Shown piece by piece: positions 1,306 through 50,488 of a stretch of 50,488 nt of DNA (its first letter is position 1; every line of letters starts with the position of its first letter). Made by a program: the position numbers and the translations under genes. The stretch is taken from the IMG/VR virus record IMGVR_UViG_3300037506_000199, positions 1 through 50,488 of that record; one strand, given 5' to 3'. A model generated the notes under the pieces. That model saw only the letters and a program-made list of their open reading frames with translations. It did not search any database and had not been told where the DNA came from. Origin of the DNA: a virus (lineage: Duplodnaviria; Caudoviricetes).

Positions 1306-1340
1306 GTTGCAAGCCTGTGCAATGGCTTCGTAATTTCGAC
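1306..1340 (+). repeat. Solitary CRISPR-repeat-like unit (copy D)
   Basis: GTTGCAAGCCTGTGCAATGGCTTCGTAATTTCGAC, 25/35 identical to array repeat; followed by ATAAGGAG and ATG at 1356. Confidence 0.75.
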
Positions 1341-1689: not shown

Positions 1690-2460
1690 ATGGGCAGGCA
1701 CGGTAAATGGGGATGGCTGTGGGCCGTATCGATTGTAACGGCCCTAGCGGCTTCGCTGGCGAGCGCGGAGACGAAGCGGGTAGAAAGCCGCGATAGGCTC
1801 GTCGAGCTCGTTACGGAAGCCGCTGGGGCCGCTGACGTTGATTGGGAGGCCAGAGACCCGGTTGGGGCCTCCATGAAGACCTTCCGATGTACCGATGGGA
1901 CTACCCGCGCGGTAATCTGGGTAAGCGGCCCCGGCGCGGTGGTCGTCTCGGATGTCATTGACTGGGACGCCCGGCAGCGGATTAAAACCCAGTGGATCGT
2001 GACCATTGTTGGTTCTGATCCACCCCCTGCTCCGGGACCGTCCCCACCTCCTGCTCCGGGACCGTCTCCACCAGCACCAGATGCTGCTCCTTTTCCAGCT
2101 CCAGGACTGACTGTCGTGATCGTGGGCGAGTTTTCCGATGACAATGCGGTGCGGTCTATGCCGGCATCCCAGTTGGCAATCTTCAACAGTGCGCAAGTGC
2201 TGCGGTGGTGCGTCGAGCATTGTTTTCGTCATGGCAATAGTGATATTGCGTTTCGCAGATGGGATGATGATTACACCGATACCGATCTGCATGTCGTGCC
2301 ACCCTTTCTGAAGCAGGCTTATGTGACCACTAAGCAGGCACGAAAAAATGAGCCGGAACCATGGATTGGTATCAGTGACGGCAAGACGGGATACATAGGA
2401 CCATTGCCCAAAGATATTGCTGGTACGTTGGAGTTATTGGGCCAGTACGGAGGCAAATGA
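1690..2460 (+). CDS. Secreted/membrane-anchored protein with Pro-rich linker; near-matched by CRISPR spacers 1 and 16
   Basis: N-terminal signal peptide (WLWAVSIVTALAASLASA), DPPPAPGPSPPPAPGPSPP linker between two domains. Confidence 0.8.
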   Translation: MGRHGKWGWLWAVSIVTALAASLASAETKRVESRDRLVELVTEAAGAADVDWEARDPVGASMKTFRCTDGTTRAVIWVSGPGAVVVSDVIDWDARQRIKTQWIVTIVGSDPPPAPGPSPPPAPGPSPPAPDAAPFPAPGLTVVIVGEFSDDNAVRSMPASQLAIFNSAQVLRWCVEHCFRHGNSDIAFRRWDDDYTDTDLHVVPPFLKQAYVTTKQARKNEPEPWIGISDGKTGYIGPLPKDIAGTLELLGQYGGK

Positions 2461-3230
2461 TGGCACGAATGATTAGCATCAATGACGTGAATTATCGCCA
2501 GTTCGTCAACCCGGTGATCAATGGCGAAACACGTGTCTGCAAAAGTTTCGGTATGTGGTTGCCGCGTTCACGCGGTGCCCCAAAGCCTTTTGAAGCCATG
2601 GGCATCCCAGTGTTGCCCGAATCGTCGTGGGACGAGCGCATTGAGGAACTCGAGCGCAACGAAGCCACGCTGCGACATTTATGCGATGGCATGGAATTGG
2701 AATGCCTGGACCAAAAGTCCACGTCATATTGCTGGGTGTTTGGTCCTACCATGTGTTGCATGATTACCCGTTTGCGGGAAACTGGCCGCGAATACCGTTT
2801 GTCGCCAGCTTCCGCTGGCGCGCCGATCAAAAATTTTCAGAATCGTGGTGGGTGGGGAGAGGAAGCGCTGAATTATTTCGTAAAGTATGGGTTGAACGAG
2901 CAGGCGGATTGGCCTGAGACAGCTATAGATCGCCGATATTACACGGATGAAAATCGGCGTAAGGCGCTGGCACATCGCGTGCTGGAGTATTATCGCATTG
3001 ACACCTGGTTACAAATGGGAAGCGTGATTTTGCATGGCATTCCGGTTTCCCCTGGGTATAACTGGTGGGCTCACCAAGTAACTGGAGTACATGTGCGCCG
3101 TGGCGACCATGCCCTGTTGATTCGCAATTCTTGGGGCAGGGACTGGTCGGATGATGGCTATGGCTGGTTGGAAGGCAACAAACGTTATCCCGATGGTTGC
3201 GTTGCCATTACTACCATGGCGGCGCTGTGA
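2457..3230 (+). CDS. Papain-like (C1 family) cysteine peptidase
   Basis: QKSTSYCW (oxyanion Gln, catalytic Cys), AHQV (His), IRNSWGRDWSDDGYGW (Asn motif). Confidence 0.85.
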   Translation: MMARMISINDVNYRQFVNPVINGETRVCKSFGMWLPRSRGAPKPFEAMGIPVLPESSWDERIEELERNEATLRHLCDGMELECLDQKSTSYCWVFGPTMCCMITRLRETGREYRLSPASAGAPIKNFQNRGGWGEEALNYFVKYGLNEQADWPETAIDRRYYTDENRRKALAHRVLEYYRIDTWLQMGSVILHGIPVSPGYNWWAHQVTGVHVRRGDHALLIRNSWGRDWSDDGYGWLEGNKRYPDGCVAITTMAAL

Positions 3231-3259
3231 TGCCTGTGCAATGACGTTGTAATTGCCAT
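3225..3259 (+). repeat. Solitary CRISPR-repeat-like unit (copy E)
   Basis: CTGTGATGCCTGTGCAATGACGTTGTAATTGCCAT, 21/35 to array repeat; spans peptidase stop and next start codon. Confidence 0.6.
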
Positions 3260-3775: not shown

Positions 3776-4069
3776 ATGAAAATGGTGATTCGCGGTTTGT
3801 GTGTGTGCTGTGTATTGGTGGCCATGTCGCAATTGAAAAGCCATGGCGCAGGTATTGAGTTGTGTCGTTCCGACAGCGGTCACGATTGCATAGCCATTGG
3901 CTGTGGTACCGCGTGTGCAACAACACCGCATGATCACACTGCGTGCGCGATGACGTCGCATAATTGCACCGCGCGCAAGATGTCTCGGCACGAGCACGGC
4001 AAGGCAAAGTGGTGGAGTCGCGGGCCAGTGCGCAGAGGATTGCGCGCGTTACTGCGTGGCGGTTGCTGA
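3776..4069 (+). CDS. Small Cys-rich, probably secreted protein
   Basis: AAGGAG RBS, hydrophobic N-terminus, many Cys. Confidence 0.65.
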   Translation: MKMVIRGLCVCCVLVAMSQLKSHGAGIELCRSDSGHDCIAIGCGTACATTPHDHTACAMTSHNCTARKMSRHEHGKAKWWSRGPVRRGLRALLRGGC

Positions 4070-5011: not shown

Positions 5012-5025
5012 GCTAGCTGTTGCTC

Positions 5026-6773: not shown

Positions 6774-6827
6774 CCCGATGTAGGCCGGCTATGTCCACAG
6801 TGTATCACATCGGGTGCAGCGCGTCAA
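6774..6827 (-). promoter_or_regulatory. sigma70-type promoter with operator-like inverted repeat
   Basis: TTGACG-17-TACACT; CCCGATGT-N25-ACATCGGG; shares CCGGCCTACATCGGGC with the promoter at 4412. Confidence 0.7.
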
Positions 6828-6965
6828 GTCCTACTACTGTGACCACCACCACAGCGCTATGACAGCACTGGCACCACACACTGACACCAGGAGACTGCTC
6901 ACCGTCCGGCTCCAGTCCCAGACTACGCTCTCGCCGCACCGGACACGGGCTTGGTTCAGCTGTGA

Positions 6966-7205
6966 GCTGTACAAATTCTGTACAGCAAACCCGCTGCTGT
7001 ACAAATTCTGTACAGGACATCGCTGTACCAGTGCTGTACCGTCCAGCGCCTGCGCCTGCGCCTGCGCCTGCGCTGCGCCTGCGCCGAAATATCCCTGCGA
7101 CTGCCCTGCGCCTGCGCCTGCATTGCCCTGCACTGCGCCTGCGCCTGCACAGTTCCTGCGCAGGACCTGCGCTGACCTGCACAGGACCTGCGCCGGACCG
7201 GCGCC
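6966..7205. repeat. Non-coding repeat cluster: two GCTGTACAAATTCTGTACAG dyads and a (GCGCCT)n-like microsatellite
   Basis: 20-bp copies at 6966-6985 and 6996-7015; GCGCCT/GCACCT-type hexamers ~7046-7200. Confidence 0.8.
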
Positions 7206-7300
7206 GAGGGGCCCCTGACACACGCTCGTTTGGGTTTCCGCTACACGGTCCAAGCGGTTCAGCTACTCATCTAAACCCTTTCGGCGCCGTCCCGTTTGGC

Positions 7301-7360: not shown

Positions 7361-7395
7361 GTCATAATCACCAAGCCATTATGCAGGCATTGACG
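7361..7395 (-). CRISPR. Solitary near-perfect CRISPR repeat (copy F)
   Basis: Minus strand CGTCAATGCCTGCATAATGGCTTGGTGATTATGAC, 32/35 to array repeat. Confidence 0.9.
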
Positions 7396-7755: not shown

Positions 7756-7834
7756 GTTGCGAATACGCAGCCATTGCACAGGCATTAAGTCGCAATTACG
7801 TCACAATTACGAAGCCATTGCACAGGCAAAGAGA
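7756..7834 (-). repeat. Two adjacent CRISPR-repeat-like units (copies B 7800-7834 and A 7756-7790) plus a partial copy
   Basis: Both contain GCCTGTGCAATGGCT on the minus strand; 25/35 and 21/35 to array repeat. Confidence 0.7.
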
Positions 7835-7854
7835 AGCTGTACAGCAGCTTAGGT

Positions 7855-7883
7855 AGTATATAGGACGGCTGGAGTGAGTGCAA
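7855..7883 (-). promoter_or_regulatory. sigma70-type promoter directly upstream of repeat-like copy B
   Basis: TTGCAC-17-TATACT. Confidence 0.6.
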
Positions 7884-8108: not shown

Positions 8109-8143
8109 GTCGCAATTACGCAGCCATTGCACAGGCAAAGAGG
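8109..8143 (-). repeat. Solitary CRISPR-repeat-like unit (copy C)
   Basis: Minus strand CCTCTTTGCCTGTGCAATGGCTGCGTAATTGCGAC, 23/35; ends 15 nt before ATG 8093. Confidence 0.7.
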
Positions 8144-8236
8144 CGCTGGAGGGTTGAAGAGTTCCCTCCAGCGCCCAACCCGATGCCCACTGGAGAAGGC
8201 ACGGTACAAAACGGGTTCATCACTCCCGTGGGAGAT

Positions 8237-14173: not shown

Positions 14174-14818
14174 ATGGCAAAACGCGAAATTATTGCTGGT
14201 GCCATAGATCAGACAATTGACGTGTTTATCCTGGATAGTAGTTCCACGATTGGCGCGGGCCTGTCTGGCTTGGTGTACAACGCATCCGGGTTGACATGTT
14301 ATTACCGCAAGGGCGCCACAGGCACGGCCACGCAACTGACGTTGGCCACGCAAACCGTGGGCGGCGCACACACAGATGGTGGCTTCGTGCAAATCGACGC
14401 CACCAACATGAAAGGCGTGTATCGGTTGGACCTTTCGGATACGATTGTTGCGACCGCAGGCATGGTCACCATCTATTTGCAAGGTGCCGCCAACATGGCA
14501 CCGTGCGTGTTGGAAGTAGATGTCGTGGCGGATCGGGATAATCGAGACGCACGCTTTCATCGCGCCAAGAACGCAATCGTGCTGGGCACCGTCACCAGCG
14601 GCGCCACCACGACATCGATTCCCACGAGTTCATTAGATCCAGCAGCATCCGCTACGGATCAATTCAAGGGGCGCATTCTGCTGTTTGACCGTAATACCAC
14701 GACGGCGAATTTGCGAGGGCAGGCCACTGATATCACGGCTTCGACGAGTGGCGGCGTGCTAACGGTCACGGCGCTGAGCCATGCGCCGGTTAGTGGCGAC
14801 ACCTTCACAATCGAATAG
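14174..14818 (+). CDS. Hypothetical virion protein
   Basis: Thr/Ala/Gly-rich beta protein among fibre genes. Confidence 0.65.
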   Translation: MAKREIIAGAIDQTIDVFILDSSSTIGAGLSGLVYNASGLTCYYRKGATGTATQLTLATQTVGGAHTDGGFVQIDATNMKGVYRLDLSDTIVATAGMVTIYLQGAANMAPCVLEVDVVADRDNRDARFHRAKNAIVLGTVTSGATTTSIPTSSLDPAASATDQFKGRILLFDRNTTTANLRGQATDITASTSGGVLTVTALSHAPVSGDTFTIE

Positions 14819-20835: not shown

Positions 20836-21855
20836 ATGCCGATTGTTGTGACTCACAATCCAGATATTGGTTTACTGGCACGAGCTGGGTACGTGGCAGG
20901 TTATGGCGAATTCTTGCAGCGGCAACAAGAATTAGCGCAGCGCGAACGCATGCAAGAGCGCGCGCTGGCCGCTAATATGTACAGCCAGCAAATAGCACAA
21001 AACGCTGCCATGGAACGCATGTTGGTGGGTGGTCAAATGGAAGCGGACCAACGTGCCTGGGCCATGGAACAAGAAATAAATGCGCGTCGTCAATTGGCAG
21101 AACTGGAAGCGCAAAATCGGCTGGATGTGTTGCAACAGCGCATGGAACGTGATCGGCAAAATAAATTGTTGGAACGTGAAACGGCGGGAAATGCGGATAT
21201 TGTAAAGTTTTTCACCAATCGAGCCGCACAACAAATCGATGATGTGAATGGGCTGTTGGCCGAAGGATATCAGTTCGAGGGTGACGGTGAAAAACAATGG
21301 CGAGATACGATGCAACAGATCGCTCGCTTGCAACAAGATCAGACGTTGAGCCCGATGGCAGCGGCACAGGCTATTTACAACAAAATGGCCGAAGCGACAT
21401 TGCCACGATTAAAGCCGCCGGCGCTACAAGATACGATTCCGGCAAGAATCGCCAAAATTGATACACCGGATGGGCCCGTGTGGGTGTCCCAAGCTCGTGA
21501 TTTGAGCACGATATACACGCCACATCCCAAAAAAGACATACAAACACCACCGGCGCAGATGAGCTATGCGGAATGGATCAATTCGAATCCAGCCGTGTGG
21601 AATCAAGCGGTCAAGATGGCGACAGAAGTATTGACAGTGCAGCCAGAAAAATACACCGAAATGAAAAATGACGAAAAAATAGAACACTTTCATCCAGGAA
21701 AAAAACCAACGCCGGATGAAATAGCGGATGCTGCCACGAAAATTCTGCGACGGATGTGGGAACAAGTACCTCGGGAAGTATCGCCAACGGCGCCATTGGT
21801 GGAAGGCTCTGTGCGACGATACGATGTACATACGGGACAATTATCGACACCATGA
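20836..21855 (+). CDS. Putative internal virion (ejection) coiled-coil protein
   Basis: Gln/Glu/Ala-rich helices. Confidence 0.6.
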   Translation: MPIVVTHNPDIGLLARAGYVAGYGEFLQRQQELAQRERMQERALAANMYSQQIAQNAAMERMLVGGQMEADQRAWAMEQEINARRQLAELEAQNRLDVLQQRMERDRQNKLLERETAGNADIVKFFTNRAAQQIDDVNGLLAEGYQFEGDGEKQWRDTMQQIARLQQDQTLSPMAAAQAIYNKMAEATLPRLKPPALQDTIPARIAKIDTPDGPVWVSQARDLSTIYTPHPKKDIQTPPAQMSYAEWINSNPAVWNQAVKMATEVLTVQPEKYTEMKNDEKIEHFHPGKKPTPDEIADAATKILRRMWEQVPREVSPTAPLVEGSVRRYDVHTGQLSTP

Positions 21856-24800
21856 AAACAGTGCAATTGTCTAACGGACGTGTCATGCAATACCCAGATG
21901 ACTGGGATTGGGACCGTATAAAAGCCGACTTGGATCGGCAATATCCAGAGGCAGGGCGCAAAAGCCAGTTAGCAACGGCTGCCGTTTCTGCTCAGTATCC
22001 GCAACCGAATGAAGCTGATATGTTCTCCATGGACAAGGGACCGCTGGACACGTATGGTCCCATGCGCGAAGGTTATGGGCGCACGGTTATGGCGCCACCA
22101 CAGGCAGCTGATCCGTTAACGGAGATGTATCGGCAACAACGGATCGAGGCGGGATTGGAACGGCTCAAATATGGCCGGGAGATTGGGTCAATTGAGTGGC
22201 CAAAATATGACGTTAAGGACATGTCGCCATTCGAGACGGCCGCCGTCGAGGCATTGAGTTTGCTGGGCAATCATGGCGAAGAACTCGATGCGCTGCCCGA
22301 GACATATTTAGGTCGTGCGGAAAACCCGCGACACGTGCGATTGGCTGCGTATCTCAAACGCATGCAAGAGCGGCAAGGCGATCCAGAAACGGATTGGGTG
22401 AATTATTTCGGCGAAAAAATGCCGTTGGCCTTGCCGGCCTTGATGGCGGGTAGTCCTCCCGCGGCGGCGGCGGGAGTATTGGCTTCCCCGATCGTGAAAA
22501 TCATGAATATGCGCCGGGTGCGTCATGCCGCCGAACGATACGTGCAAGACAAAGCATCCGACGAGGACTTGATCACGTTGGCCTTCGCGATTCGGGAACA
22601 GCAGCGGTTGTCGAAGCAGGGCATGCTTCGTCGAGCGCTGGATGTTAGCGCGGAAATGCCACAGTTTGCCACCGAAGTCATGGTGCCTTATTCCAAGGCG
22701 CTTGGTGCAGGTCGCATGGTGGGACAAGCCACTAGAAGCCTCCGAGCCGTGCCCGTGGCGGGACAGTTGCTACGCGGAACGGCCAAGTGGAGTGGCGCCG
22801 AGTTTGTCGGCAAGATGGCGGCTCGGGGCGCCGCCACAGCGGCCTGGAATCCTCAGCGCGTGCTGGAATTCGCGGAAGCCAGGCGATTGTATGAGAATGA
22901 AGACCAGACTAAGGCGCTGTTGAAGGGATTTGCCGATGCCACCATTGAGTATGGCTCGGAAACATTTGGACAATTACTGCCTCGTTCCACCGTGATCAAA
23001 GGGCTCACGAAATGGCTAAAAACCAAGGGCCGATTTGCCAACATGACACCATTCGAGTTTCGCAAGGCGATGAATCGGGCGGGTTTGCAAGGCGTGCTCA
23101 TGGAGATTGCTGAGGAACAGGTCGCCAGTCTGGCTCGTGGATTAACCGTTACGCCTGGTGATTTCGGTAAATGGTCAGCGAATACGTGGGGTGAGACCAT
23201 CGGCCAGTTGATGGAAGAATTTCTTGTTTTCTTGCCCTTGGCTGGTGTTGGCGCGATGGCCCAATTAGGAACCACGCGAAAAGAATGGTTGGCGATAGCA
23301 GAGGCACGCATGCAGGCGCGCGCGGCGAAGGAAGCCGAGCAGTATTTTGCTGAATTGGAAACAGCTGAACCAGCAGCTGAACCAGCAGCTGAACCAACAG
23401 CTGAACCAGCAGTAACGCCAACTGAGATACCGATCGAGACGCCAAGCGAAGCACCGAAGGAGCAACTTGCAGAAACTGGAGTTTTGGATCGCATTGATGT
23501 CACGCCAGAGGAAATTCTGGATCAGGCGCCCGGAATGGCCGAGCAATTGCTGGAGGCGGAGGAAACGTCGCTGCGCGGGCAAGTGAGTCGTAAGCAATTT
23601 GCGGATATTACTGGTATACGTAACCAAACATTCGAACAACATCCACGCGCCGGCGCTTATCGCCAATTGATTAGTGATACCGTGCAGCTAGCCCGCGCGC
23701 GGGCTGAACAGGCGCAAGTCGAGGCCACGACAGGCGCAGCGACACAAGTGGAGGAAAGCCAGTCGGTCAGCGACCAAGCCGCATCAAGCGAGTTAACACC
23801 CGAAGAAGTGCGGGAAGATATGGAGACTCTGTACAACCACTTGGCCGAGAAAATGGGGCACCCGCCAGTAGTGTCAAGGCAGCTACAACCACGGCATTAC
23901 AAAACCAAGCGTCTGGCACAGCGGCTGGGAGTGCAGGTGGAATTTTTTGAAGCATCTGAAGAACAAATAACACCCGACATTGCTGAGCAGGGGAGGGGTG
24001 TGACGTTGAAAAGAGGGCGATTGCTGATGTTGCCAGGACATCAGACAACGGCCCAAAACGAACAAGTCCTGTTGGCACATGAACTGGCACGTGCCGGCGA
24101 AAGGGACAGGGGATGGGAACAGTTTGATCCCGAGCTAATTACACAATACGAGAAAGTGAGACCTACCAGGACGCGAGCGCAACGAACGGCTTATTTGGCG
24201 AAAGATCCAGAAGAGAAGCGCCACGAAACTATGGCTAGCCTGATACATGAGTTTATGCAAAACCCGGATTTGCGCCGGCAGTTGTGGGCAGAGAATCGCG
24301 CGGCCTGGGATTATATCATGACGGGTTTGCGCCAAGCGGTCGGTGCCAAAAACGAATGGAGCAAAGCGACACAACAAATGCTTGATCTGTTTGTGGCGGA
24401 GCGGGGGGAATGGCAACAGCTCCAAGCTAAAATGGAAATTGACGCTGCCAATCGGCCCGAAGAGGAACCCAATGGGCAATGGGGCGCGGAGGAAGAGGAT
24501 AAAAAAAAAGCAAGCGTTGAACCAGATGCCAGTGGCCAGACCGGACCCATGGGAATGCCGCTTAAACGTCCACCAAGCACCGTCTTTACCATGGATATGC
24601 CAATGACATTGACGGGTCCGCCGCCTAAGCATCGCATCTGTACTGTGCCACAAATTTTTCGACAATTACATCGCATCGCCGCGGCGGTCGGATCAAATGC
24701 TCAATTTCGCTTTGGTCTCATGGGCCGATTAGGGAAAAGATTCAAAGGCTGGTACCATCCTGCGTTGGATACTGCTCGGTTGCGCGATGTGGGCGATATA

Positions 24801-27800
24801 CCGGCCGCTGCGCATGAATTAGGTCATGCAGTGGATTGGCATTACTTTGTCACTGGACCAATTGCAGGCAAGGCAGAGGACTTTGATGCGCAATGGCGAG
24901 CAAAACTTGGTAATGGGGCGGCCGATGAACTAGAGGCCGCTGGACATGCGCGCTACACGGACCTTTCCCGGCCACCTGCTGGTGGTTATCTGCGCGAAGG
25001 CTTTGCTGAATTCGTGCGTGTTTATTTAACCAATCCAGAGCAGCTGCCAACGTTGTTTCCCACGATGACGCCGTGGTTCGAAACACAGGCACAAGGTGCG
25101 TTGTTGAAGGAAATGCGGAAGGGGCAACGCATGATCACAGAGTATCGTACCAGTGGTGCTTGGGCGCGCGACGAAGCGGCGCGCGTCAATCCGCATAGCG
25201 CGCGTTATAAACTCCAGAAAATAACATCGTATTTCCGTAGCACGAAACTAATGGAGGACTGGATTGAGGTATTTTATCCGCTCAAGTTGATGGATGCCAT
25301 GGCGGACGAATACCGGCGCAAGCGTGGGCTGCCGCCACGAGCGTGGAATGAACGTCTCTACGAAACCGCGAAGTATACGCGCGGTATGGGTGCGTCATGG
25401 ACACATTTCGCCAAGCGATTCGGACCTATTGACATTGATGGCAAACCGATGGATGCACGGCCCTTGCAAGATGTCAGTCAGTACGTGCATTGGGATGAAG
25501 CGGAACATTTCAAGAAATACTTGGCGGCTTGTCGTACCCTGGCAAGGGCCGGACAACCTGTACAAATGCTGCATGAAAGCGAGGAACAGTTTGCCGAGCG
25601 AAGGAAGTTGGCTCAATCCTTGCCGGCTATCGCGACGCACATGGATGTAGCGGACGCGGCTCAACTAGTAAAAGACGCAGAAGCGTTTTTTGATCAACGA
25701 AAGGAGCTGCATCCACACGGCAAGGACGATCTTAGGGCGGCCGCTGAAATTTATTGGCGCTTTCGGAATGCTGTGCTGACGTATTGCGGTCAAGTTAGCG
25801 AAACCGCGCGAAGAGATATCGAGTTGGTACAACAACTCGATCCCGGCAACTATATTGGCATTGCGTTTCAGCCCGATGAAGAATTTGATCCACATATGCG
25901 CGGTGGCAAAGGGGGTAGTTCCGTGACCACTGGTGCAATCGTCAAGCGCCAGCGTGGCTATCGTGGACAGGTGACGGATTTGTTGGAAGCGTCCTTCAAG
26001 GCAATGCAGCGCCAAGTGGACTCGGCCTGGCGTATGCGATTGGCGGAACAAGTGGCTCGCATCGCCAGTGTGGATGACATTAGCGGCGTTGGTAAATGGA
26101 TCGAACCCGTGGAACGGGCGATGGAAATGAAATACAAGACCGTCAAGGAAGAACTGCTCAAGCGCATTCACAAAGATTTAGTCGTGCGGGATCAAGACGG
26201 CAATGTCATTGATACGCTGCCAAACATATTGGAGGAACTACATATTGGCAAAGCGAGTCTGGCGATTGATGATCACGTCAACCAAATGGTTGAATTTTGG
26301 GCACCGGCACGGGACTATCGGGGACACCGGCCAGTCGTAATTATCAACGTGCCCATCAAGGACGTGAATGGTAAGGTGATCGGCAAGGAACCAAAATGGT
26401 TTTATGTGAATCCCGCTTTGCATCGGATTTTGGTTAGTCCAGATGCCACATGGCATCCTTATGGCAATGCGTTCGTGGATGGCATGTTGGGTATCATGCG
26501 CGCGATTGCCAAGGTGTGGAAATTCAGCACAGTGGGCATTCGACCTGCCTTCAATTTAATTCGCAACCCGGTCAGGGATGTGCGCACATTCTTGTATCAA
26601 ACTACGGACAATAACCCAGCGCGTGCATTATGGTGTTGGGCACAAACACTGGGCAGTGAGACCTATCATTTGTTCACGGAGCAGCCATCGGATTTTCATC
26701 GACTGTTAATGATGTGCGGGGGTATTGCTGGACAGCCATTGACACAAGACGTGCAAGCCTTACGAACCGCGGCCCATGATATTTTTGGCAAGACGCGCGC
26801 CTATTATCTTGATTGGCACAACGTGGGCAAAATCCTCAAGGATGGCTTTTCGGAAGTTGTGGATAGATTGCAGTTTATGGAGCGCGTGCCGAGAATCGCA
26901 GAACTGAAAATGCGCGTGCAACGCTATAATCGCCATGGCATGCTGCGACAAACAGGGGAAGCGGCTTGGCAATTCGGTGATCCAACCACCTTGGAGATGT
27001 TGAAGGATTTGCGATTAGCATCCAGTGAGATCACCATTGATTTTCTAGCGGGAGGACGAATTACGCAAAGCTGGAATGCTTACATGCCATTTTTTAACGT
27101 GGCGTTCCAATCAAAACGCACGACATGGCGGGTATTTCATCGTGATCCACAGAGATTCATTAAGTATTTGAGCATTTATGCTGCTTATGTGTTGGGCATG
27201 TGGTATTTGCACAAGGATGATGAGGATTACAAGGAAGCGGACAATCGAAAATACTTGTACGATCATTTTTTCTTCACGAACCCGGTGACCGGTGAGCGCG
27301 AAGTGTTGATGCTGGCGCGGGATCACGAAATGGGCGTGATGCTGTCGATCCTTGAAGGCTTGGTGGACTCCACGTACCGCAGCATGATCGATAACGAACT
27401 TGATCCAGAGCCGTTCGTGAGGGCCATTGTAACTTATGCGAATTCCTCGTTGCCAAGTCTGGCACCACCGCTGGCGCTGGAAGTATGGGAACAGGGCCGG
27501 AACAAAGACAGTTGGACGGGACGCAAAATTGCTAGCGGGAAGGGGCCACCAGAACAACAATACACGGAATACACAACGGGGGCGGCCATTACCATGGGCC
27601 GCATTCTGGGCGTGTCGCCTGCGCGACTGGATCATGCGATTGAAGGATTATTCGGAGCCACGAGTGTGGACATCCTGCGTTTGTGGACCAACATGGTGGG
27701 CCAGAAACGGACCGTCAAGGATTTTGCTTTGAGCGATATTCCAGTGGCGGGAAGCTTGTTCAAAAAAGGCGGGGCGCTGGGTTATCGCCCGCGCAGTGTG

Positions 27801-28130
27801 GAACAAGTATGGGAAGAGCGCGATCGTGCCGAAGTGGCGCAATATGACGTGGAGCGACCAGAAACAGCACGGCAGCGACAACGCCGTTTGATGCTGTTTG
27901 ACGCCACGCGAGCACTGGCGGCCTATGATGCTGCCAAACGAGCGAGCAAAGAGCGCGATGTGCAACAACAACTCACGCGTGCGCAATATGAGCTGGCCAA
28001 AAAAGTGTTGGCGGATCTGAAGGAAATTGACCAGCGGCAGGCACCTGTGCCGCGCGAACGGATTGCGGCGGCGCGGCGGCAAGCGCAACGCATACAAAAA
28101 CAAGTAGCACAAGAAGCAGCACAACCATGA
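21852..28130 (+). CDS. Giant internal virion / polyvalent protein with zincin-like metallopeptidase motif and LPD38-like C-terminus
   Basis: ~2092 aa from MKTVQL; AAAHELGHAVD...REGFAEFVRVYL; C-terminal PFFNVAFQ...E.G.NKDSWTGR.I...SPARLDHAIEG.FG pattern. Confidence 0.65.
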   Translation: MKTVQLSNGRVMQYPDDWDWDRIKADLDRQYPEAGRKSQLATAAVSAQYPQPNEADMFSMDKGPLDTYGPMREGYGRTVMAPPQAADPLTEMYRQQRIEAGLERLKYGREIGSIEWPKYDVKDMSPFETAAVEALSLLGNHGEELDALPETYLGRAENPRHVRLAAYLKRMQERQGDPETDWVNYFGEKMPLALPALMAGSPPAAAAGVLASPIVKIMNMRRVRHAAERYVQDKASDEDLITLAFAIREQQRLSKQGMLRRALDVSAEMPQFATEVMVPYSKALGAGRMVGQATRSLRAVPVAGQLLRGTAKWSGAEFVGKMAARGAATAAWNPQRVLEFAEARRLYENEDQTKALLKGFADATIEYGSETFGQLLPRSTVIKGLTKWLKTKGRFANMTPFEFRKAMNRAGLQGVLMEIAEEQVASLARGLTVTPGDFGKWSANTWGETIGQLMEEFLVFLPLAGVGAMAQLGTTRKEWLAIAEARMQARAAKEAEQYFAELETAEPAAEPAAEPTAEPAVTPTEIPIETPSEAPKEQLAETGVLDRIDVTPEEILDQAPGMAEQLLEAEETSLRGQVSRKQFADITGIRNQTFEQHPRAGAYRQLISDTVQLARARAEQAQVEATTGAATQVEESQSVSDQAASSELTPEEVREDMETLYNHLAEKMGHPPVVSRQLQPRHYKTKRLAQRLGVQVEFFEASEEQITPDIAEQGRGVTLKRGRLLMLPGHQTTAQNEQVLLAHELARAGERDRGWEQFDPELITQYEKVRPTRTRAQRTAYLAKDPEEKRHETMASLIHEFMQNPDLRRQLWAENRAAWDYIMTGLRQAVGAKNEWSKATQQMLDLFVAERGEWQQLQAKMEIDAANRPEEEPNGQWGAEEEDKKKASVEPDASGQTGPMGMPLKRPPSTVFTMDMPMTLTGPPPKHRICTVPQIFRQLHRIAAAVGSNAQFRFGLMGRLGKRFKGWYHPALDTARLRDVGDIPAAAHELGHAVDWHYFVTGPIAGKAEDFDAQWRAKLGNGAADELEAAGHARYTDLSRPPAGGYLREGFAEFVRVYLTNPEQLPTLFPTMTPWFETQAQGALLKEMRKGQRMITEYRTSGAWARDEAARVNPHSARYKLQKITSYFRSTKLMEDWIEVFYPLKLMDAMADEYRRKRGLPPRAWNERLYETAKYTRGMGASWTHFAKRFGPIDIDGKPMDARPLQDVSQYVHWDEAEHFKKYLAACRTLARAGQPVQMLHESEEQFAERRKLAQSLPAIATHMDVADAAQLVKDAEAFFDQRKELHPHGKDDLRAAAEIYWRFRNAVLTYCGQVSETARRDIELVQQLDPGNYIGIAFQPDEEFDPHMRGGKGGSSVTTGAIVKRQRGYRGQVTDLLEASFKAMQRQVDSAWRMRLAEQVARIASVDDISGVGKWIEPVERAMEMKYKTVKEELLKRIHKDLVVRDQDGNVIDTLPNILEELHIGKASLAIDDHVNQMVEFWAPARDYRGHRPVVIINVPIKDVNGKVIGKEPKWFYVNPALHRILVSPDATWHPYGNAFVDGMLGIMRAIAKVWKFSTVGIRPAFNLIRNPVRDVRTFLYQTTDNNPARALWCWAQTLGSETYHLFTEQPSDFHRLLMMCGGIAGQPLTQDVQALRTAAHDIFGKTRAYYLDWHNVGKILKDGFSEVVDRLQFMERVPRIAELKMRVQRYNRHGMLRQTGEAAWQFGDPTTLEMLKDLRLASSEITIDFLAGGRITQSWNAYMPFFNVAFQSKRTTWRVFHRDPQRFIKYLSIYAAYVLGMWYLHKDDEDYKEADNRKYLYDHFFFTNPVTGEREVLMLARDHEMGVMLSILEGLVDSTYRSMIDNELDPEPFVRAIVTYANSSLPSLAPPLALEVWEQGRNKDSWTGRKIASGKGPPEQQYTEYTTGAAITMGRILGVSPARLDHAIEGLFGATSVDILRLWTNMVGQKRTVKDFALSDIPVAGSLFKKGGALGYRPRSVEQVWEERDRAEVAQYDVERPETARQRQRRLMLFDATRALAAYDAAKRASKERDVQQQLTRAQYELAKKVLADLKEIDQRQAPVPRERIAAARRQAQRIQKQVAQEAAQP

Positions 28131-28540
28131 GCATGGATGAATCACTGCCTCCCAGTGAAGAGGATGTTGTGTGGGTTTATTCCCATCTCAATAAATGTAA
28201 GACGGAAGCAGCGCGCAAACGCGTTAGCCAGGAAGCGCCAAGCAATGGCGCGGCGGAGATGCTGGACTGGGCGCTCGAGAATCGAAACAAATTCTTTGAT
28301 ATATATGTACCCATGTTTATCAAAACCAATAAACGCGAACAAAGGTTGCGCGACGATGGCCGGAAGAGATTGGAAAGATTCGCTCAAGCAGACGCTTACT
28401 ACCGTGCGCAAGAAAATCTTGAACGAGAACGCGCCGTCGGTGGAAGAGGACTTGAAGAAGCTGCCCTTCTACAGCCTGGTGCCCAAGCAACCACTAAGCA
28501 ATCTGGCCTATCGTCAAACGCTTCTGGAGCTGGCGGATGA
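28127..28540 (+). CDS. Putative terminase small subunit
   Basis: Coupled to upstream gene; immediately precedes and overlaps TerL; position-based call. Confidence 0.45.
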   Translation: MSMDESLPPSEEDVVWVYSHLNKCKTEAARKRVSQEAPSNGAAEMLDWALENRNKFFDIYVPMFIKTNKREQRLRDDGRKRLERFAQADAYYRAQENLERERAVGGRGLEEAALLQPGAQATTKQSGLSSNASGAGG

Positions 28541-30248
28541 AGATCCAGAATTGCAGCTAGAGTTATGGATTGCCAGCAAGCGCGATATTTTATTTTTTAC
28601 CAATGTCTTTTTGTGGGTGTTCGAGCCTCGGGAAGCCATTGTTCTGCCGTTTATTACTTGGCCATACCAAGACAAGGTATTGTTGCAAACGGACAAGGCC
28701 ATCGGACGCGAAGACTGCGGCATTGAAAAGTCGCGCGACATGGGCGCTAGCTGGATGTTTTTGACCAACTTCTTTTATCGCTGGCTGTTCTTCAAATACC
28801 AAGTATTTGGCTTGGTGAGCCGCAACCAAGATACCGTGGACGGCAAGGATGATCCCGATACCTTAATGTGGAAACTGGATTTTCATTACAAAAATTTGCC
28901 ACGGTGGATGCAGCCGGAGTTGTATCGCGTCAAGCTGCAAATGAAAAATCTGGAGCTGGAGTCGACAATTACTGGTTATTCGGCCACCGACGACGTGGCG
29001 CGCGGCGGGCGTAAGACGGCATTCGGCATGGATGAGATTGCCAGTTGGGGCGTGGACAATAGTTTTAAGGCGTGGTCCAGCACGCAACACGTGACCAATT
29101 CGCGCATCATGCCTAGTACCCCGCGTGGCATGGCGGGTGTATTTGCCGATTCGATGCGCAATGACAATGGCATGCTGAAGATTAGCATCCATTGGTCGGA
29201 ACACCCCAAAAAACAACCTGGTTTGTATCACAGTGTGGACGGCGTGGTGCGAATCATCGACACGGAGTATCCGTTTCCTCCGGACTATCCCTTCGTGTTG
29301 GATGGCAAGTTACGTTCGCCATGGTATGACCGGGAGTGCAAACGACATCCCATACCCGCTTTGATCGCCCAGGAGTTGGATATTGATTACGGCGGCTCCG
29401 GGTTTCCGTTTTTCAATGCCAAGACGATTGAGGATCATGCCAAGATGTTTGGTTGTGATCCGTATCTGGTCGGAGATTTGGAATTCGATGCGGATATCGC
29501 GAATGTAGAATTTCGGCCGACCGCGATTGGATCGTTGAAGCTTTGGTTGCATTTGGACGGCAATGGACAACCGCCCCACAACGTGGATTACGTGATTGGC
29601 TGTGATGTCGCGACGGGCACGGCTACGGAAGGGGCGAGCAATTCTGTGGCATCTGTGATCAATACCAACACGGGAGAAAAAGTGGCGGAATGGGCCGCCA
29701 ACTTTCTGTCGCCACACAAATTTGCCGAAATGGTTGTGGCCTTGCGCAGATGGTTTCGAGGTCCCAAGGGGATTGCCTTCACGATCTGGGAGTTAAATGG
29801 TCCAGGCACGCAATTCGCGAAGCGTTTCCTGGAGCTCAATAGCGCCCGGATTTTCTACCGTGAGGCTAGTAACCTGATTGCCAGCAGAACAAACACCCCT
29901 GGTTTTTTCAGCAACCGGGAAACAAAACGTGTCTTACTCGGCAAGTATGCCCGTGGTTTGGAGGGCAATTATATGATCAATCGCTCATTGCCCGCTATGG
30001 AAGAATGCCTACATTATGTGTTTACGCCGGAAGGGGCCGTGGAACATGATCGAGCCAAATCCACCATTGATCCAACGGCCGCTGGCGACAATCACGGTGA
30101 CCGTGTGATTGCCGATGCCCTGGCATGGTATGTATGTGGCAGTGCTCATGAGGTGAGCCAGCGGAAAGAGGTATTGCGGCCGCCGATCGGAAGCATAGCT
30201 TGGCGAATAACATTGAAAGCTCGCAAACCCACGGAGCAATGGCTATGA
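28356..30248 (+). CDS. terL: Terminase large subunit (start uncertain)
   Basis: WPYQ adenine motif, Walker A IEKSRDMGASW, Walker B FGMDE, STPRG, nuclease VIGCDVATG and HGDRVIADAL. Confidence 0.92.
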   Translation: MAGRDWKDSLKQTLTTVRKKILNENAPSVEEDLKKLPFYSLVPKQPLSNLAYRQTLLELADEDPELQLELWIASKRDILFFTNVFLWVFEPREAIVLPFITWPYQDKVLLQTDKAIGREDCGIEKSRDMGASWMFLTNFFYRWLFFKYQVFGLVSRNQDTVDGKDDPDTLMWKLDFHYKNLPRWMQPELYRVKLQMKNLELESTITGYSATDDVARGGRKTAFGMDEIASWGVDNSFKAWSSTQHVTNSRIMPSTPRGMAGVFADSMRNDNGMLKISIHWSEHPKKQPGLYHSVDGVVRIIDTEYPFPPDYPFVLDGKLRSPWYDRECKRHPIPALIAQELDIDYGGSGFPFFNAKTIEDHAKMFGCDPYLVGDLEFDADIANVEFRPTAIGSLKLWLHLDGNGQPPHNVDYVIGCDVATGTATEGASNSVASVINTNTGEKVAEWAANFLSPHKFAEMVVALRRWFRGPKGIAFTIWELNGPGTQFAKRFLELNSARIFYREASNLIASRTNTPGFFSNRETKRVLLGKYARGLEGNYMINRSLPAMEECLHYVFTPEGAVEHDRAKSTIDPTAAGDNHGDRVIADALAWYVCGSAHEVSQRKEVLRPPIGSIAWRITLKARKPTEQWL

Positions 30249-46819: not shown

Positions 46820-48619
46820 ATGAAAAATTGGTGTTATCGTGCTTATGAGCCGACCAAGAATTTAGAACGAGTGAACGAACAATTGAGACTAGCGCACATC
46901 TACAGAAACAAGCTATGTGAGCTGGAACTGCAAAGACGCGAGGAAGTGGAGGCTTGTTGGCGCGAATGCTGCCCGGAATACATGGTCGCCAAAGACATGA
47001 TGGCCATGAAACAAGCGAAACTGGACGAGCTGTTTGCTAGCATTCGCAAACGAGCGCAAGCCAACAGAACGAAGGCAGCACCAATTGGCGAAGAACGCGC
47101 GTTGATACAGAAACTCAAAGTGGAAATGAAAACCAGTCGCCAGGAAGTCAAGGCGCTACTGGCTACTGCGAAACAACGACCCGATGTCGTACAACGCCTG
47201 ATGGAGCTGAGCGAAGCGCATAAACGTCGCTACCGAGCTGCTAGAGCTAGCAGCGGATTATTTTGGGGCACCTATTTGTTTGTCGAGGATAGCTGCAAGG
47301 ATTTTGGTCGCGGCGCCCCACCACAGTACCGTCGGTGGAATGGTACTGGTACCATCGCATGCCAGGTCCAGTATGGTTTACCAGTGGACGAATTGCTGCA
47401 AGGTCAGGATACTCGCGTGCGATTACACATATCGGCAGCATGTGAAGAAGCGTTGGCGACGCAAGGTAAGGCACATGGCAAGCGTGCTCGGAGCTACGTG
47501 GAGATGCGCATCGGTTCCGAAGGTAGGGCCCCCATATTCGCGACAATACCGATCCAGATGCATCGACCATTACCAGCAGGCGCCAAAATAAAATGGTGCT
47601 ATCTGGAAAAACGGCGGGTGGCGTCACAAGAACAATGGACCGTGCGATTAAGTATTGACGAGCCTCCGCGCATTCGCGCCACATGCGAAGAGCTGTGTTG
47701 TGTACACGTGGGATGGCGAGTGATGGAGGATGGGAGCCTACGTGTCGCCACGTGGCGAGGATCAGATGGCCAACAAGGACAAGTGATGATAGCACCAGAA
47801 CGTATCGCGCGACTGTGCTATTGTGATGAACTACGGAGCGTGCGCGATCACAATACCAACATGCACCGAACTATGCTTATCGAATGGCTCAAGTCGCATG
47901 AGCATCCGGAATGGCTGGGCGAACGCACTGCGACAATCGGACAGTGGCGCAGCCCGGCCAGAATGGCGGCGCTGGTATTGGCGTGGCGCGAACAAAGGTT
48001 TGCTAGCGACGAACAAATATATGTGCCATTGGAAGCATGGCGAAAACAAGACAAACATCTGTGGACGTGGCAAGAACATCAGCGGCGCAATTGTGTGTGC
48101 TGGCGTAATAACGAGTATCGCAACGTCGCCAAGACACTAGCAGCTCGCTATGGGCATATATGCATTATGGATTGCGAATGGGCTGAAATGCGCAAAAAGC
48201 CAGCAATTGGCGAAGAGGAAAAACAAACAACGGCTATGCGGTTCAATAGTTCGTTGGCGGCCGTAGCAACCCTGGAGCGATACTTGCGTGAGGCGTTCGG
48301 TACGGATTGCGAGTTGCACATAGACACGGCTGGCGTGACGCGACAATGCCATGCGTGCGGCGCTAACAATGAAGATATAGGAGTGACACGTATGGTCACA
48401 TGCTGTGGTTGCGGGCGCGAAATAGATATCGATCTCAACGCACTGGACAATATGGTTGCGAGAGCCAAGGTGGTGCACGCTACTCAGCCGCCACTCGCGA
48501 GCATTATGACACAACGAGTTAAAGCACATGGTAACAGCCGACCGCTATCGAAACGACAGGCTGGATTTCGCGCCGCTCGCAAAAGGCCGCGCAACCAGAA
48601 TCCGGACAACAGCTTATGA
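46820..48619 (+). CDS. cas12m: Type V-M CRISPR effector Cas12m-like (C2c4/V-U1), RuvC predicted inactive
   Basis: 599 aa adjacent to array; QLRLAH, GLFWGTY, RWNGTGTIACQVQ, VHVGWR (H296 at RuvC-I), QWRSPARMAAL, ICIMD (D451), CHAC/CCGC Zn finger, DIDLNA (D538); these parallel MmCas12m motifs as recalled from memory. Confidence 0.88.
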   Translation: MKNWCYRAYEPTKNLERVNEQLRLAHIYRNKLCELELQRREEVEACWRECCPEYMVAKDMMAMKQAKLDELFASIRKRAQANRTKAAPIGEERALIQKLKVEMKTSRQEVKALLATAKQRPDVVQRLMELSEAHKRRYRAARASSGLFWGTYLFVEDSCKDFGRGAPPQYRRWNGTGTIACQVQYGLPVDELLQGQDTRVRLHISAACEEALATQGKAHGKRARSYVEMRIGSEGRAPIFATIPIQMHRPLPAGAKIKWCYLEKRRVASQEQWTVRLSIDEPPRIRATCEELCCVHVGWRVMEDGSLRVATWRGSDGQQGQVMIAPERIARLCYCDELRSVRDHNTNMHRTMLIEWLKSHEHPEWLGERTATIGQWRSPARMAALVLAWREQRFASDEQIYVPLEAWRKQDKHLWTWQEHQRRNCVCWRNNEYRNVAKTLAARYGHICIMDCEWAEMRKKPAIGEEEKQTTAMRFNSSLAAVATLERYLREAFGTDCELHIDTAGVTRQCHACGANNEDIGVTRMVTCCGCGREIDIDLNALDNMVARAKVVHATQPPLASIMTQRVKAHGNSRPLSKRQAGFRAARKRPRNQNPDNSL

Positions 48620-48626
48620 GTGCCGC

Positions 48627-49842
48627 GTTCCATGCCTGCATAATGGCTTTGTGATTATGACCCACTCGCTTCGTCTCCGCGCTTGCCAGCGAAGCCGCTA
48701 GTTCCATGCCTGCATAATGGCTTTGTGATTATGACCGTCGCATCGGCGAAGACTGCCGACTTGCGATTGCCGGTTCCATGCCTGCATAATGGCTTTGTGA
48801 TTATGACGGCCTGAAGCCCGGCCGATGGCGCTGCCTGCGCTGCGACGTTCAATGCCTGCATAATGGCTTTGTGATTATGACGTGTGGACGGCGATCGTCG
48901 GGCCCTCGGGAGACAAAGTTCCATGCCTGCATAATGGCTTTGTGATTATGACCGGCTGGCACGCAGCCAGCACGCATCACGTCATAACGTTCAATGCCTG
49001 CATAATGGCTTTGTGATTATGACAACGCGATCTCGTAGCGCGCGATCTGCGCGTCCGTTCAATGCCTGCATAATGGCTTTGTGATTATGACTGGGGACTG
49101 TCCGCCCCGCGCGGACCGATCCCGTGCGTGCGTTCAATGCCTGCATAATGGCTTTGTGATTATGACTCGCTGGCGCTGGAAGCGTCGGCAAGACAACGCT
49201 CGTCGTTCAATGCCTGCATAATGGCTTTGTGATTATGACGCGGAGCACGCGACCCGCACGTTCAATGCCTGCATAATGGCTTTGTGATTATGACAGCCAG
49301 CACGGGATGTCCGATCCACGTCCGTTCAATGCCTGCATAATGGCTTTGTGATTATGACAGGTCGTCGTCCGTCGCCATACCAGCTCTGGGCCGCCGTTCA
49401 ATGCCTGCATAATGGCTTTGTGATTATGACGACTGCCCACGACGCAGAACGTTTAATGCCTGCATAATGGCTTTGTGATTATGACAACGTGAGAGCGTAC
49501 TGGACAACTCGCGTAGGCGCCCGTTCAATGCCTGCATAATGGCTTTGTAATTATGACCCCGCGCATACAGTCTATGTGGTTGCCAGTCGCTATACGTTCA
49601 ATGCCTGCATAATGGCTTTGTAATTATGACCCTGGAAGACATCCTCGAACTGCCAACTCTGCTTGACATGCAATGCCTGCATAATGGCTTTGTGATTATG
49701 ACATCTCCTGGTCCGGGACCGTCTCCACCAGCACCAGATGCGTGCAATGCCTGCATAATGGCTTTGTGATTATGACGACCTGCTGCGACTGTTGCTGTTA
49801 TGAGCGCGTCCAATGCTCGCGTCATGGTGTTGTGATTATGAC
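48627..49842 (+). CRISPR. CRISPR array, 18 repeats / 17 spacers (20-40 nt)
   Basis: Repeat GTTC(A/C)ATGCCTGCATAATGGCTTTGTGATTATGAC (35 nt; often preceded by C); degenerate terminal repeat 49808-49842 and TTT PAM at the spacer-1 match support plus-strand orientation. Confidence 0.98.
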
Positions 49843-49915: not shown

Positions 49916-50488
49916 ATGCCACGAATCAGAACGATCAAGCCAGACTTTTGCTGTCGAGAAGAGATTTGTGCCTGCTCCAAGGGTGCCAGGTTGCTTTACA
50001 TTCTGATGTGGATGCATTGCGATGATTATGGTAACCATCCAGCCAAATTCAATGCATTGCGATCGGCATGTTTTCCGCGCGATTCCGACGGGGTCGAACA
50101 AATAGGCAATTGGATTGCCGAGTTGGTAACACAGGGACTATTAGTAGAATACACAGGTCATGATGGCGAGCAATATTGGCATGTTGTCAACTGGGAGATG
50201 CTGCAAAAAATAGACCGCCCGAGCAAGCAACGTTACCCAAGCAATTCTGGCGGTAGTTCCAATGGGGGAGTGGCTCGAGGAGTAGTTGACGAGTACTCGA
50301 CGAGCCACCCCCCCATAGATACTACGCCTCAACAAAAAACACTCGACGAGTACTCGTCGAGCCACCCCCCCATAGGTACTGACACTCGACGAGTACACTC
50401 GTCGAGCCACCCCCCCATAGGTACTGACACTCGACGAGTACACTCGTCGAGCCACCCCCCCATAGGTACTGACACTCGACGAGTACAC
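49916..50488 (+). CDS. Phage replication initiator, N-terminal part (runs off window)
   Basis: MPRIRTIKPDF...ARLLYILMWMHCDDYGNHPA...FPRD...W...QKIDRPS, typical initiator N-terminus; open to window end (not in ORF track). Confidence 0.8.
   Translation, partial: MPRIRTIKPDFCCREEICACSKGARLLYILMWMHCDDYGNHPAKFNALRSACFPRDSDGVEQIGNWIAELVTQGLLVEYTGHDGEQYWHVVNWEMLQKIDRPSKQRYPSNSGGSSNGGVARGVVDEYSTSHPPIDTTPQQKTLDEYSSSHPPIGTDTRRVHSSSHPPIGTDTRRVHSSSHPPIGTDTRRVH
50354..50488 (+). repeat. 45-bp tandem repeat (3 copies, plus degenerate copy upstream), iteron-like
   Basis: TCGTCGAGCCACCCCCCCATAGGTACTGACACTCGACGAGTACAC with ACTCGACGAGT dyad. Confidence 0.9.

Follow-up and report, generated by a model that had tools for sequence, protein, structure and literature searches.

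A phage-borne type V-M locus with a putative non-cutting Cas12m, a leader-overlapping effector gene and dispersed scaffold copies

What does a phage gain from a CRISPR effector that is predicted not to cut DNA, and how can the array that guides it grow in a genome without recognisable adaptation genes? These questions are raised by a locus near the end of the virus record IMGVR_UViG_3300037506_000199 (Caudoviricetes), which was analysed over its whole length of 50,488 nucleotides (nt), hereafter the window. As described in the first-pass annotation, a previous description made from the sequence alone, an open reading frame (ORF) for a type V effector of 599 amino acids (aa) is adjoined by a 17-spacer array. 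The repeats of this array number 18 (Table 1), and neither Cas1, Cas2 nor Cas4 has a Pfam match in the record (CheckV completeness 82%). We consider it probable that this is a phage type V-M locus, in which a DNA-binding, non-cutting Cas12m blocks rival elements and in which repeat-like cores dispersed outside the array likely serve Cas12m as RNA substrates.

Table 1. Coordinates of the features discussed in the text (positions in the window).
Feature	Position	Strand	Remarks
cas12m gene, 599 aa	46820..48619	+	ORF; profile, PDB sequence, fold
RuvC triad codons	H296 47705-47707; M450 48167-48169; D538 48431-48433	+	
CRISPR leader, overprinted by last ~55 cas12m codons	48456..48626	+	motif comparison across loci
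Leader motifs	inverted pair at 48456 and 48491; proximal motif 48573	+	proximal motif read as AARK in protein
CRISPR array: 17 spacers between 18 repeats of 35 nt with a 28-nt pseudoknot core	48627..49842	+	leader end left
Spacer 1 (newest)	48662..48700	+	36/39 to own genome; mismatches 2, 5, 23; flank TTT
Self site of spacer 1	1745..1783	-	inside 256-aa gene
Spacer 2	48736..48772	+	matches non-array X2 contig; DUF3987 motif on minus strand
Spacer 11	49359..49395	+	matches 89-nt X2 contig
Spacer 16 (old)	49703..49741	+	37/39 to own genome; mismatches 2, 9; flank CCC
Self site of spacer 16	2046..2084	+	inside 24-nt tandem duplication, 256-aa gene
256-aa gene with both self-matching sites	1690..2460	+	hydrophobic N-terminus, Pro-rich linker, virus-rich Atlas clusters
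Dispersed copy, 25/35	1306..1340	+	then AAGGAG and ATG of 94-aa ORF (1356-1640), guide nt 16-18
Dispersed copy, 21/35, weak on identity alone	3225..3259	+	spans peptidase stop and ATG of 62-aa ORF
Dispersed copy, 24/35	3826..3860	-	antisense to ORF 3776-4069; ATG of 35-aa frame directly after
Solitary array-type repeat, 32/35	7361..7395	-	tandem-repeat sequence follows, no ORF
Pair of dispersed copies, 9 nt apart	7756..7834	-	7800-7834 25/35; 7756-7790 21/35
Dispersed copy, 23/35	8109..8143	-	ATG of 68-aa ORF (8093-7887), no clear Shine-Dalgarno sequence, guide nt 16-18
Terminase large subunit	28137..30248	+	phage context
Replication initiator, N-terminal part	49916..50488	+	directly after CRISPR array

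The Cas12m effector and its leader

Profile, PDB sequence and predicted-fold comparisons confirm that the 599-aa protein is Cas12m (V-M/V-U1), in agreement with the earlier assignment. The best PADLOC model was Cas12u1 (7e-98), followed by a Cas12f-labelled model (1.2e-93), and all others reached 5.5e-9 or weaker. The matches among PDB sequences were Cas12m chains (1e-53 to 5.5e-11), with the next one at E 0.88. An AlphaFold2 model (predicted local distance difference test score 85.5) has the Cas12m fold with its long helical recognition insertion at about 600 aa. Its top four Foldseek matches were all Cas12m (E 5e-32 to 1.5e-24; next 3e-11), and VIA-align gave Z scores of 21.6–22.5 for Cas12m (root-mean-square deviation 5.3–6.8, 460–537 aligned) against 17.2 for TnpB; by both programs, Cas12m structures rank above TnpB and Cas12f. 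An IS200/605 TnpB or a Cas12f was rejected, as the protein has no D-E-D RuvC site, is not of about 400 aa and finds its best matches in Cas12m.

The RuvC positions had been read as H296, D451 and D538, of which the first and the last stand and the second is shifted by one residue. When the protein is aligned to 8hhl/8hio and 8pm4, with residues counted by hand, H296 corresponds to H317 of MmCas12m and H322 of GoCas12m, and D538 to Mm D579; it is M450 that falls in the catalytic RuvC-II column (Mm D485, Go D497), D451 occupying the neighbouring one. As aligned, the triad is H296-M450-D538 (H-M-D), and the H-D-D triad of the Mm/Go Cas12m2 clade was rejected because RuvC-II is M450 and the clade is separate. 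D-E-D stands exactly in columns 296/450/538 in 66 of 140 homologs. A FastTree phylogeny of 136 proteins places the phage Cas12m in a 16-member clade (support 0.999), whose members all share the His, are long-tailed and have no acidic residue at RuvC-II. With midpoint rooting, this clade is nested among D-E-D proteins, apart from the H-D-D group with Mycobacterium sequences.

The residues named as contacting the protospacer adjacent motif (PAM) in MmCas12m (PMC10442227) are kept as Y138, W149, Q182 and Q184 (Mm Y141, W152, Q195 and Q197), and Mm N156 is replaced by L153, which may relax the PAM at position -2. Since none of eight Cas12m reported in PMC11013384, D-E-D proteins included, cleaved double-stranded DNA, whatever the triad, it is safe to predict that the phage protein does not cleave DNA, and the loss of cleavage claimed before, now with an H-M-D triad, is upheld as such a prediction.

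The same annotation had listed a basic C-terminal extension of about 60 aa. A tail of 61 aa does follow D538, with 10 K/R in its last 48 residues, and it overlaps the CRISPR leader. In 38 of 41 loci, the RuvC-III codon and the first repeat core are separated by a near-constant distance (median 203.5 nt, quartiles 199–211.5); left out were three loci in which at least 200 nt separate the stop from the first core detected. Longer tails go with shorter stop-to-repeat distances (Spearman -0.70 over the 38 loci, the related ones not being independent). In 29 of 35 distinct loci, a leader motif lies 55–64 nt upstream of the first core, whether it is translated or not, with at most 9 in any other 10-nt bin. 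By this alignment of loci, the extension is the cas12m gene running through the CRISPR leader. A free-standing protein extension was rejected, because the distance from RuvC-III to the core is near-fixed while tail and stop gap trade off.

This leader also bears on the growth of the array. The Schlesneria genome G017 holds a clade member without linked cas1 as well as a separate cas3-cas5d-csd1-cas7-cas4-cas1 (type I-C) locus, in whose leader three related motifs stand at -175/-142/-54, compared with -168/-132/-50 in the phage leader. Leader motifs are reported to steer Cas1-2 to diverse GT-starting repeats, and I-C leaders to hold such upstream motifs (10.1101/2023.05.26.542337). Because the leader motif is conserved and the layout resembles that of a type I-C leader, spacers are likely added by borrowed host Cas1-Cas2 acting on the leader that overlaps the 3' end of the gene, which lends indirect support to the borrowing proposed earlier. 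We infer type I-C as the adaptation donor from the one genome G017. Cas1 was found in none of 15 Cas12m records searched.

Spacer matches and self-escape

The first repeat begins 7 nt past the cas12m stop, and a degenerate terminal repeat (49808-49842) ends the array on the right. The repeat is short and pseudoknotted: GCC pairs with a loop GGC, and the stem ends 3 nt before the spacer. The same core pairing is described for the cryogenic electron microscopy structure of PmCas12m. No trans-activating CRISPR RNA (tracrRNA)-type or other RNA family had an Rfam match in the window. Spacers are 20–40 nt long, spacers 9 and 12 measuring 20 nt.

In the reading that we prefer, the H-M-D Cas12m would bind DNA next to a TTN-like PAM without cutting it, and the bound protein would block transcription or replication of rivals, namely close phage kin and an integrative or satellite-like element. 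The gene and the array would be read as one transcript, from which Cas12m would trim its own CRISPR RNAs (crRNAs) of about 50 nt, as other Cas12m do, and host Cas1-Cas2 would add spacers through the leader overlapping the cas12m 3' end. Two targets have copies in the phage itself, which would be spared because their seeds are mismatched or the PAM is missing.

The evidence for such targets comes from four long matches (spacers 1, 2, 11 and 16; flanks TTT, TTT, TCT and CCC), all imperfect. Spacers 1 and 16 match the 256-aa gene of the phage itself. All three differences between spacer 1 and this gene are silent third-codon changes, and the two of spacer 16 alter the Pro-rich linker of the protein. 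The Atlas gives no function for this gene or for the 94-aa gene (Table 1). A papain-family peptidase gene lies downstream, and a homolog of this peptidase was also seen at L137:5723-6268, a few kb downstream of another Cas12m-array locus.

Spacers 2 and 11 match contigs of X2, a run from a second freshwater metagenome that also holds short identical pieces of the phage. Spacer 2 agrees with a non-array contig at 36 of 37 positions; positions 3-37 are identical, and the mismatch at position 2 and the TTT flank are both read from the loose end. Among the matches listed, spacer 2 also matches a second, more diverged X2 contig. The match of spacer 11 covers positions 3-35 (33 letters) with two differences, position 2 being mismatched and the flank TCT. 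On its minus strand, spacer 2 encodes a 12-residue peptide identical at 11 of 12 residues to a conserved motif of a Toprim-DUF3987 protein, which adjoins a phage integrase in G020, and the loose-end letters of the X2 contig, read by eye, extend this motif. G020 itself was rejected as the actual target and is taken as a homolog, its DNA agreeing with spacer 2 at only 28 of 37 positions. In a spacer-frame test for DUF3987, eight of 71 frames reached the loose score threshold in two or more loci, most of them low-complexity, so that the 11/12 motif match is what carries the DUF3987 case. The target of spacer 2 is likely a replication gene (primase-helicase) of an integrative or satellite-like element.

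A TTN-like PAM is likely: the 5'-TTN PAM given before for Cas12m fits the two TTT flanks, and not the TCT and CCC of the other two. The flank at one relative's self-match is TTG. The mismatch at spacer position 2 in all four matches suggests escape, and mismatches in relatives fall at positions 3-7. When 193 guides of 11 records and 42 guides of 4 records were searched for self-matches, six long ones were found in five records (this phage, G000, and G005, G007, G010 and G422), none of which combines TTN with an intact 12-nt seed. A single mismatch in the first 12 nt is reported to abolish PmCas12m activity in a human-cell activation assay, and MmCas12m is described as mismatch-intolerant in the first 11 nt. 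The simplest reading of these matches is kin and competitor targeting with self-escape. The spacer matches to kin and to a likely integrative element thus favour the silencing of competitors put forward earlier; the accompanying idea that a dead effector suits near-self targets is not borne out by them, since every self-match has seed mismatches or lacks TTN and is predicted to be disarmed.

Spacers 1 and 16 could instead serve self-regulation, the dead Cas12m dampening the operon from 1690 that encodes a secreted protein and the peptidase. The newest and a very old spacer do match the same 770-bp gene, and the spacer 1 site, flanked by TTT, lies 55–93 nt into it, near a promoter-like site at 1662-1691. 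However, the seed mismatches (2 and 5 in spacer 1; 2 and 9, with a CCC flank, in spacer 16) meet the reported intolerance of Cas12m in the first 11–12 nt, and the same disarmed pattern recurs in four other records, so that self-regulation appears very unlikely.

Several observations nevertheless weigh against the targeting of rivals and the proposed route of acquisition. The X2 contigs are short and of low depth (89–584 nt, depth 2.7–4.3), with flanks taken from loose-end letters, and two of the four flanks (TCT, CCC) are not TTN. No target is currently perfect, all four matches differing at spacer position 2. For 13 of the 17 spacers, no match was found in the phage's own genome, the phage and plasmid collections, 401 genomes or the X2 matches listed. 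The type I-C link, finally, depends on the single genome G017.

Wider searches were largely negative. The array against the phage and plasmid collections gave none, and one weak match at E 0.3, and its minus-strand frame gave none in tblastn against phages. Array and leader had short matches in 26 of the 401 genomes, which belong to the phylum of G017; at E 8.6e-4 or weaker per genome, these were taken as chance. Accordingly, no spacer match in these genomes of one phylum offers a convincing host target, and the silencing of host genes suggested in the first-pass annotation finds no backing there. In IMG/VR, neither single proteins nor the repeat pattern, the target gene or spacer 2 retrieved a close relative. 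As to the host, one of the 401 genomes holds a peptidase homolog (30%), seven matches were motif-only, and the nearest genome-borne clade member comes from Schlesneria, a hint at the host and no more. A joint 1004-5992 present in both runs, with 80% likeness, was weighed as a possible host array, but it is more likely unrelated.

Dispersed scaffold copies

Outside the array, seven further sequences resemble the repeat. The first 8.2 kb hold all of them, and the 38-kb structural-gene stretch has none. Like the self and kin matches and the leader overlap, they had been missed before. Six of the seven keep only the 28-nt core and share a variant stem unlike that of the array repeat. Order-3 Markov controls yield 0.03 matches per genome at 23/35 or more and 1.4 at 21/35 or more; the copies at 7756 (minus strand) and 3225 (plus strand), both 21/35, are not above chance on identity alone and therefore count only via the shared variant stem. 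Pseudoknot pairing is kept in 91.1% of 90 cells, and double-sided changes number 8 against 3.1 in shuffled alignments (0/500) and 0–1 when the alignment is slid, scores that relatedness inflates. ViennaRNA, which cannot fold pseudoknots, did not return one, and in its single-strand folding the stem has no advantage (z -2.0 to +1.0). The dispersed cores likely keep the crRNA pseudoknot by compensatory change and are probably bound and cut by Cas12m as RNA.

Two copies (1306, plus strand, and 8109, minus strand) each stand 15 nt ahead of an ATG. Purified PmCas12m is reported to cut pre-crRNA at two places, one after repeat nt 2-3 and the other at guide nt 17-18, and Cas12m to free guides from coding transcripts in E. 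coli; if the phage Cas12m cuts like PmCas12m, both messages would be cut at the start codon. Small hairpins and pyrimidine runs, seen by eye directly upstream of three cores (1273-1305, 7835-7855, 8144-8175), are possibly terminators or part of the RNA unit.

The whole records of related Cas12m phages contain lone cores, mini-arrays and more than one array. One peptide pattern found 18 Cas12m loci in IMG/VR; in the survey of relatives, G014 and G015 were covered in part, and the array of G006, of another repeat type, was set aside. One core stands 33 nt upstream of the cas12m start in G003, G010 has five solitary cores and three arrays, and the 153-kb virus record G012 (L066-L073), with two cas12m genes, has 73 core motif matches in many clusters on both strands. 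G001 holds a cluster of all-different cores. Condensed arrays of a 28-nt core plus a 16–22-nt guide (period about 47 nt) occur at L099:11525-12803, at L160:12665-14165 in an Actinomadura genome and in parts of L081:11848-20974, and likewise downstream of cas12m in L001. Their cores mostly differ from each other, with covarying stems; these arrays resemble mature crRNAs set head to tail, and Cas1-Cas2 would seem ill-suited to maintaining them. Cores just upstream of the cas12m start (L003:9880, L089:9883, L132:9811-9946, L097:2811-2908, L116:192), an arrangement absent in the window, are possibly autoregulatory; in L017, a scaffold copy lies about 117 nt ahead of the cas12m ORF.

A Shine-Dalgarno sequence and an ORF follow within 45 nt in 11 of 45 solitary or paired cores, compared with 28 of 345 cores inside arrays and with 10% of random sites, and a stricter test on whole records gave 8/27 sense against 1/27 antisense. 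This enrichment of solitary cores in leader positions is suggestive only. The genes that follow them in relatives form no single family (one of five encodes exonuclease VIII, four lack an assignment). An IMG/VR scan with the core pattern, its stem left free, returned 21 stretches, of which six, in five contigs, are fully paired. Four of these five contigs encode Cas12m, and none of the 15 stretches with three pairs or fewer has one in its flanks. The paired core element is tied to Cas12m with G420 as sole exception: this virus record (CheckV 100%) has a single fully paired core at G420:24466 (L232:10001), 11 nt ahead of a 145-aa ORF, and no Cas12m in the whole record.

The most likely role of the dispersed cores would be post-transcriptional control of the phage's own early-region messages, a reading that stands about evenly against its rivals. 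It is favoured because no DNA target for the cores was found in the genome: repeat-to-repeat likeness apart, the dispersed guides have no TTN-anchored match longer than 7 nt in it. More tentatively, Cas12m may act at two levels, as a DNA weapon via the array and as an RNase or switch on its own transcripts via cores in 5' leaders, the guide-end cut (nt 17-18) parting the ribosome-binding site and start codon from the gene; the spread of cores in relatives, into condensed arrays of self-covarying guides and into solitary units across the genome, would then be a phage gene-regulatory network.

A somewhat less likely account takes the cores as solitary guides, each core with its next ~17–20 nt directing Cas12m to host promoters or genes, much as TldR does. 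A single 5' scaffold is reported to suffice for CRISPR interference (CRISPRi) by Cas12m, with guides released from coding transcripts (10.64898/2026.10.26.761838). The condensed core-plus-guide arrays of L099, L160, L081 and G001, with many stems, fit this account, as do the three window copies (7361, 7756, 7800) that precede no clear gene, and prophage TldR offers a precedent. However, the own genome holds no TTN-anchored match beyond 7 nt for these guides (host genomes were not searched), and two of the guides are merely leader plus start codon.

Two further explanations fare less well. The copies might be non-functional remains of another array that has decayed, or copies of a generic phage pseudoknot that has nothing to do with Cas12m. 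Six of them do have in common a variant stem that differs from the array repeat, and single-strand folding gives the stem no preference; the compensatory stem changes, the scatter of the copies along 7 kb and over both strands, with all seven in the first 8.2 kb, the lack of a second cas12m remnant and the company that the paired stem, but not the unpaired stretches, keeps with Cas12m in IMG/VR make this unlikely. Less probable still, the cores might be decoys, resembling the solitary repeat units (SRUs) of Racrs, that soak up Cas12m, own or rival's. SRUs are reported to act as RNA anti-CRISPRs (PMC10651486), and in G420, judged complete, the full-stem core before an ORF in the absence of Cas12m is a candidate type V-M RNA anti-CRISPR. 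Here and in four of five viral contigs with a fully paired core, however, the cognate effector is on the same contig, and seven decoys against the phage's own weapon are hard to rationalise.

Some results also tell against a regulatory role of conserved cores. As stated, the copies at 7756 and 3225 do not exceed chance on identity, the number of pairs with a double-sided change does not exceed shuffles (116/500), and, for cores outside a crude coding mask (intergenic), the leader-position count falls to 4/17 against 9.7% (p=0.075).

Genomic context and comparison with known systems

The window is the full linear virus record, in which terminase, tail-fibre, virion and replication-initiator genes indicate a tailed-phage context; no PF00589 (tyrosine integrase) match was found in it. 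Both record ends lie in tandem repeats of what are apparently the halves of a single replication-initiator gene. The record is likely near-complete, as claimed before, though not closed, because it is linear, has a CheckV completeness of 82% and ends on both sides in these repeats.

Other features of the record were also recorded. A 58-nt inverted pair (4412-4469 and 6770-6827) carries a sigma-70-like promoter in each copy, facing each other, and the block of small genes between them ends at a bidirectional terminator (4972-5006). A Cro/CI-type helix-turn-helix gene lies at 4049-4321 on the minus strand. Palindromes and tandem repeats at 6950-7210 resemble, inverted, the 27-nt repeats of the replication-initiator gene (1-186), and this region near 7 kb is possibly an origin region. 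A 2124-aa protein with an LPD38 domain is encoded at 21756-28130, and a 1253-aa protein at 14818-18579, with a 72-nt tandem repeat block (14827-15846) inside its gene.

MmCas12m (Cas12m2) and GoCas12m (PMC10442227, PMC11013384) share with the phage protein the fold, size, RuvC-I His, RuvC-III Asp and most PAM-contacting residues, and their loci likewise have a short pseudoknotted repeat, no tracrRNA-type Rfam family and no adaptation genes. In contrast, the phage protein has Met instead of Asp at RuvC-II and Leu for Mm N156, belongs to its own clade, is 24–26% identical in structural alignments, and is encoded by a phage-borne gene that overlaps the leader. Arrays without other cas genes are reported as the rule for V-M (PMC11013384, PMC10691335), which is enriched on plasmids and present in some prophages (PMC11656645); landfills are reported to hold virus-encoded effectors that cluster with Cas12m (PMC12607003), and gradual RuvC decay in V-M was already known. 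MvCas12m of myxophage MV-1, reported in September 2026 (10.64898/2026.09.14.751636), keeps D-E-D and has eight spacers, for which no targets were found; this phage likewise combines Cas12m and an array without cas1/2/4. Host-mediated acquisition is called unlikely there, whereas the leader motif argues for it here, and the accessible text of that report mentions no dispersed cores. Phage and prophage Cas12m lacking adaptation genes are thus already in print, and the novelty attached to them in the first-pass annotation was overstated. The phage protein is a V-M member that would act as other Cas12m do.

Phage Cas12r of Thermus Lalka phages (10.64898/2026.04.20.719267) and viral mini-arrays (PMC11656645) are similarly described as lacking adaptation genes, as aimed at integrative elements or related viruses, and as receiving spacers next to a cas gene from host machinery. 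Cas12r differs in that it is nuclease-active, belongs to another subtype and has an A-rich PAM, and mini-arrays differ in using host effectors. TldR, a prophage nuclease-dead TnpB (PMC10705468), is also a phage-borne dead RNA-guided binder that spares self by PAM and seed changes; its guide is single and fixed and its host target has been shown, whereas the guides of the present locus come from a CRISPR array and gave no host target. Repeat-like units outside arrays are known as standalone repeats and regulatory mini-arrays of type I and V-A loci (10.1101/2023.03.03.530964) and as Racrs/SRUs (PMC10651486), often upstream of the effector gene (V-A). Those repress promoters within cas loci or inhibit host systems, whereas up to seven variant cores lie here 7–45 kb from their own effector, some in non-cas 5' leaders. 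In the literature searched, mostly non-subscription and without supplements, no description was found of dispersed or condensed Cas12m cores, leader-overprinted tails or Cas12m acting on phage mRNA leaders.

What appears new is the independent H-M-D clade, the gene overprinted on an I-C-like leader, the kin and integrative-element targets with seed escape, and the dispersed cores that seem to conserve structure. Overprinting on the CRISPR leader would explain the long C-terminal tails of the family, and the I-C-like layout points to how V-M arrays may grow without a cas1 of their own. Traceable targets, PAM-like flanks and consistent self-escape, which published phage Cas12m lack, make inter-element silencing by a dead effector testable. 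The natural covarying 28-nt cores may furnish ready-made orthogonal scaffolds for compact CRISPRi arrays and, if the dispersed ones are processed, a CRISPR effector would regulate phage mRNAs in cis.

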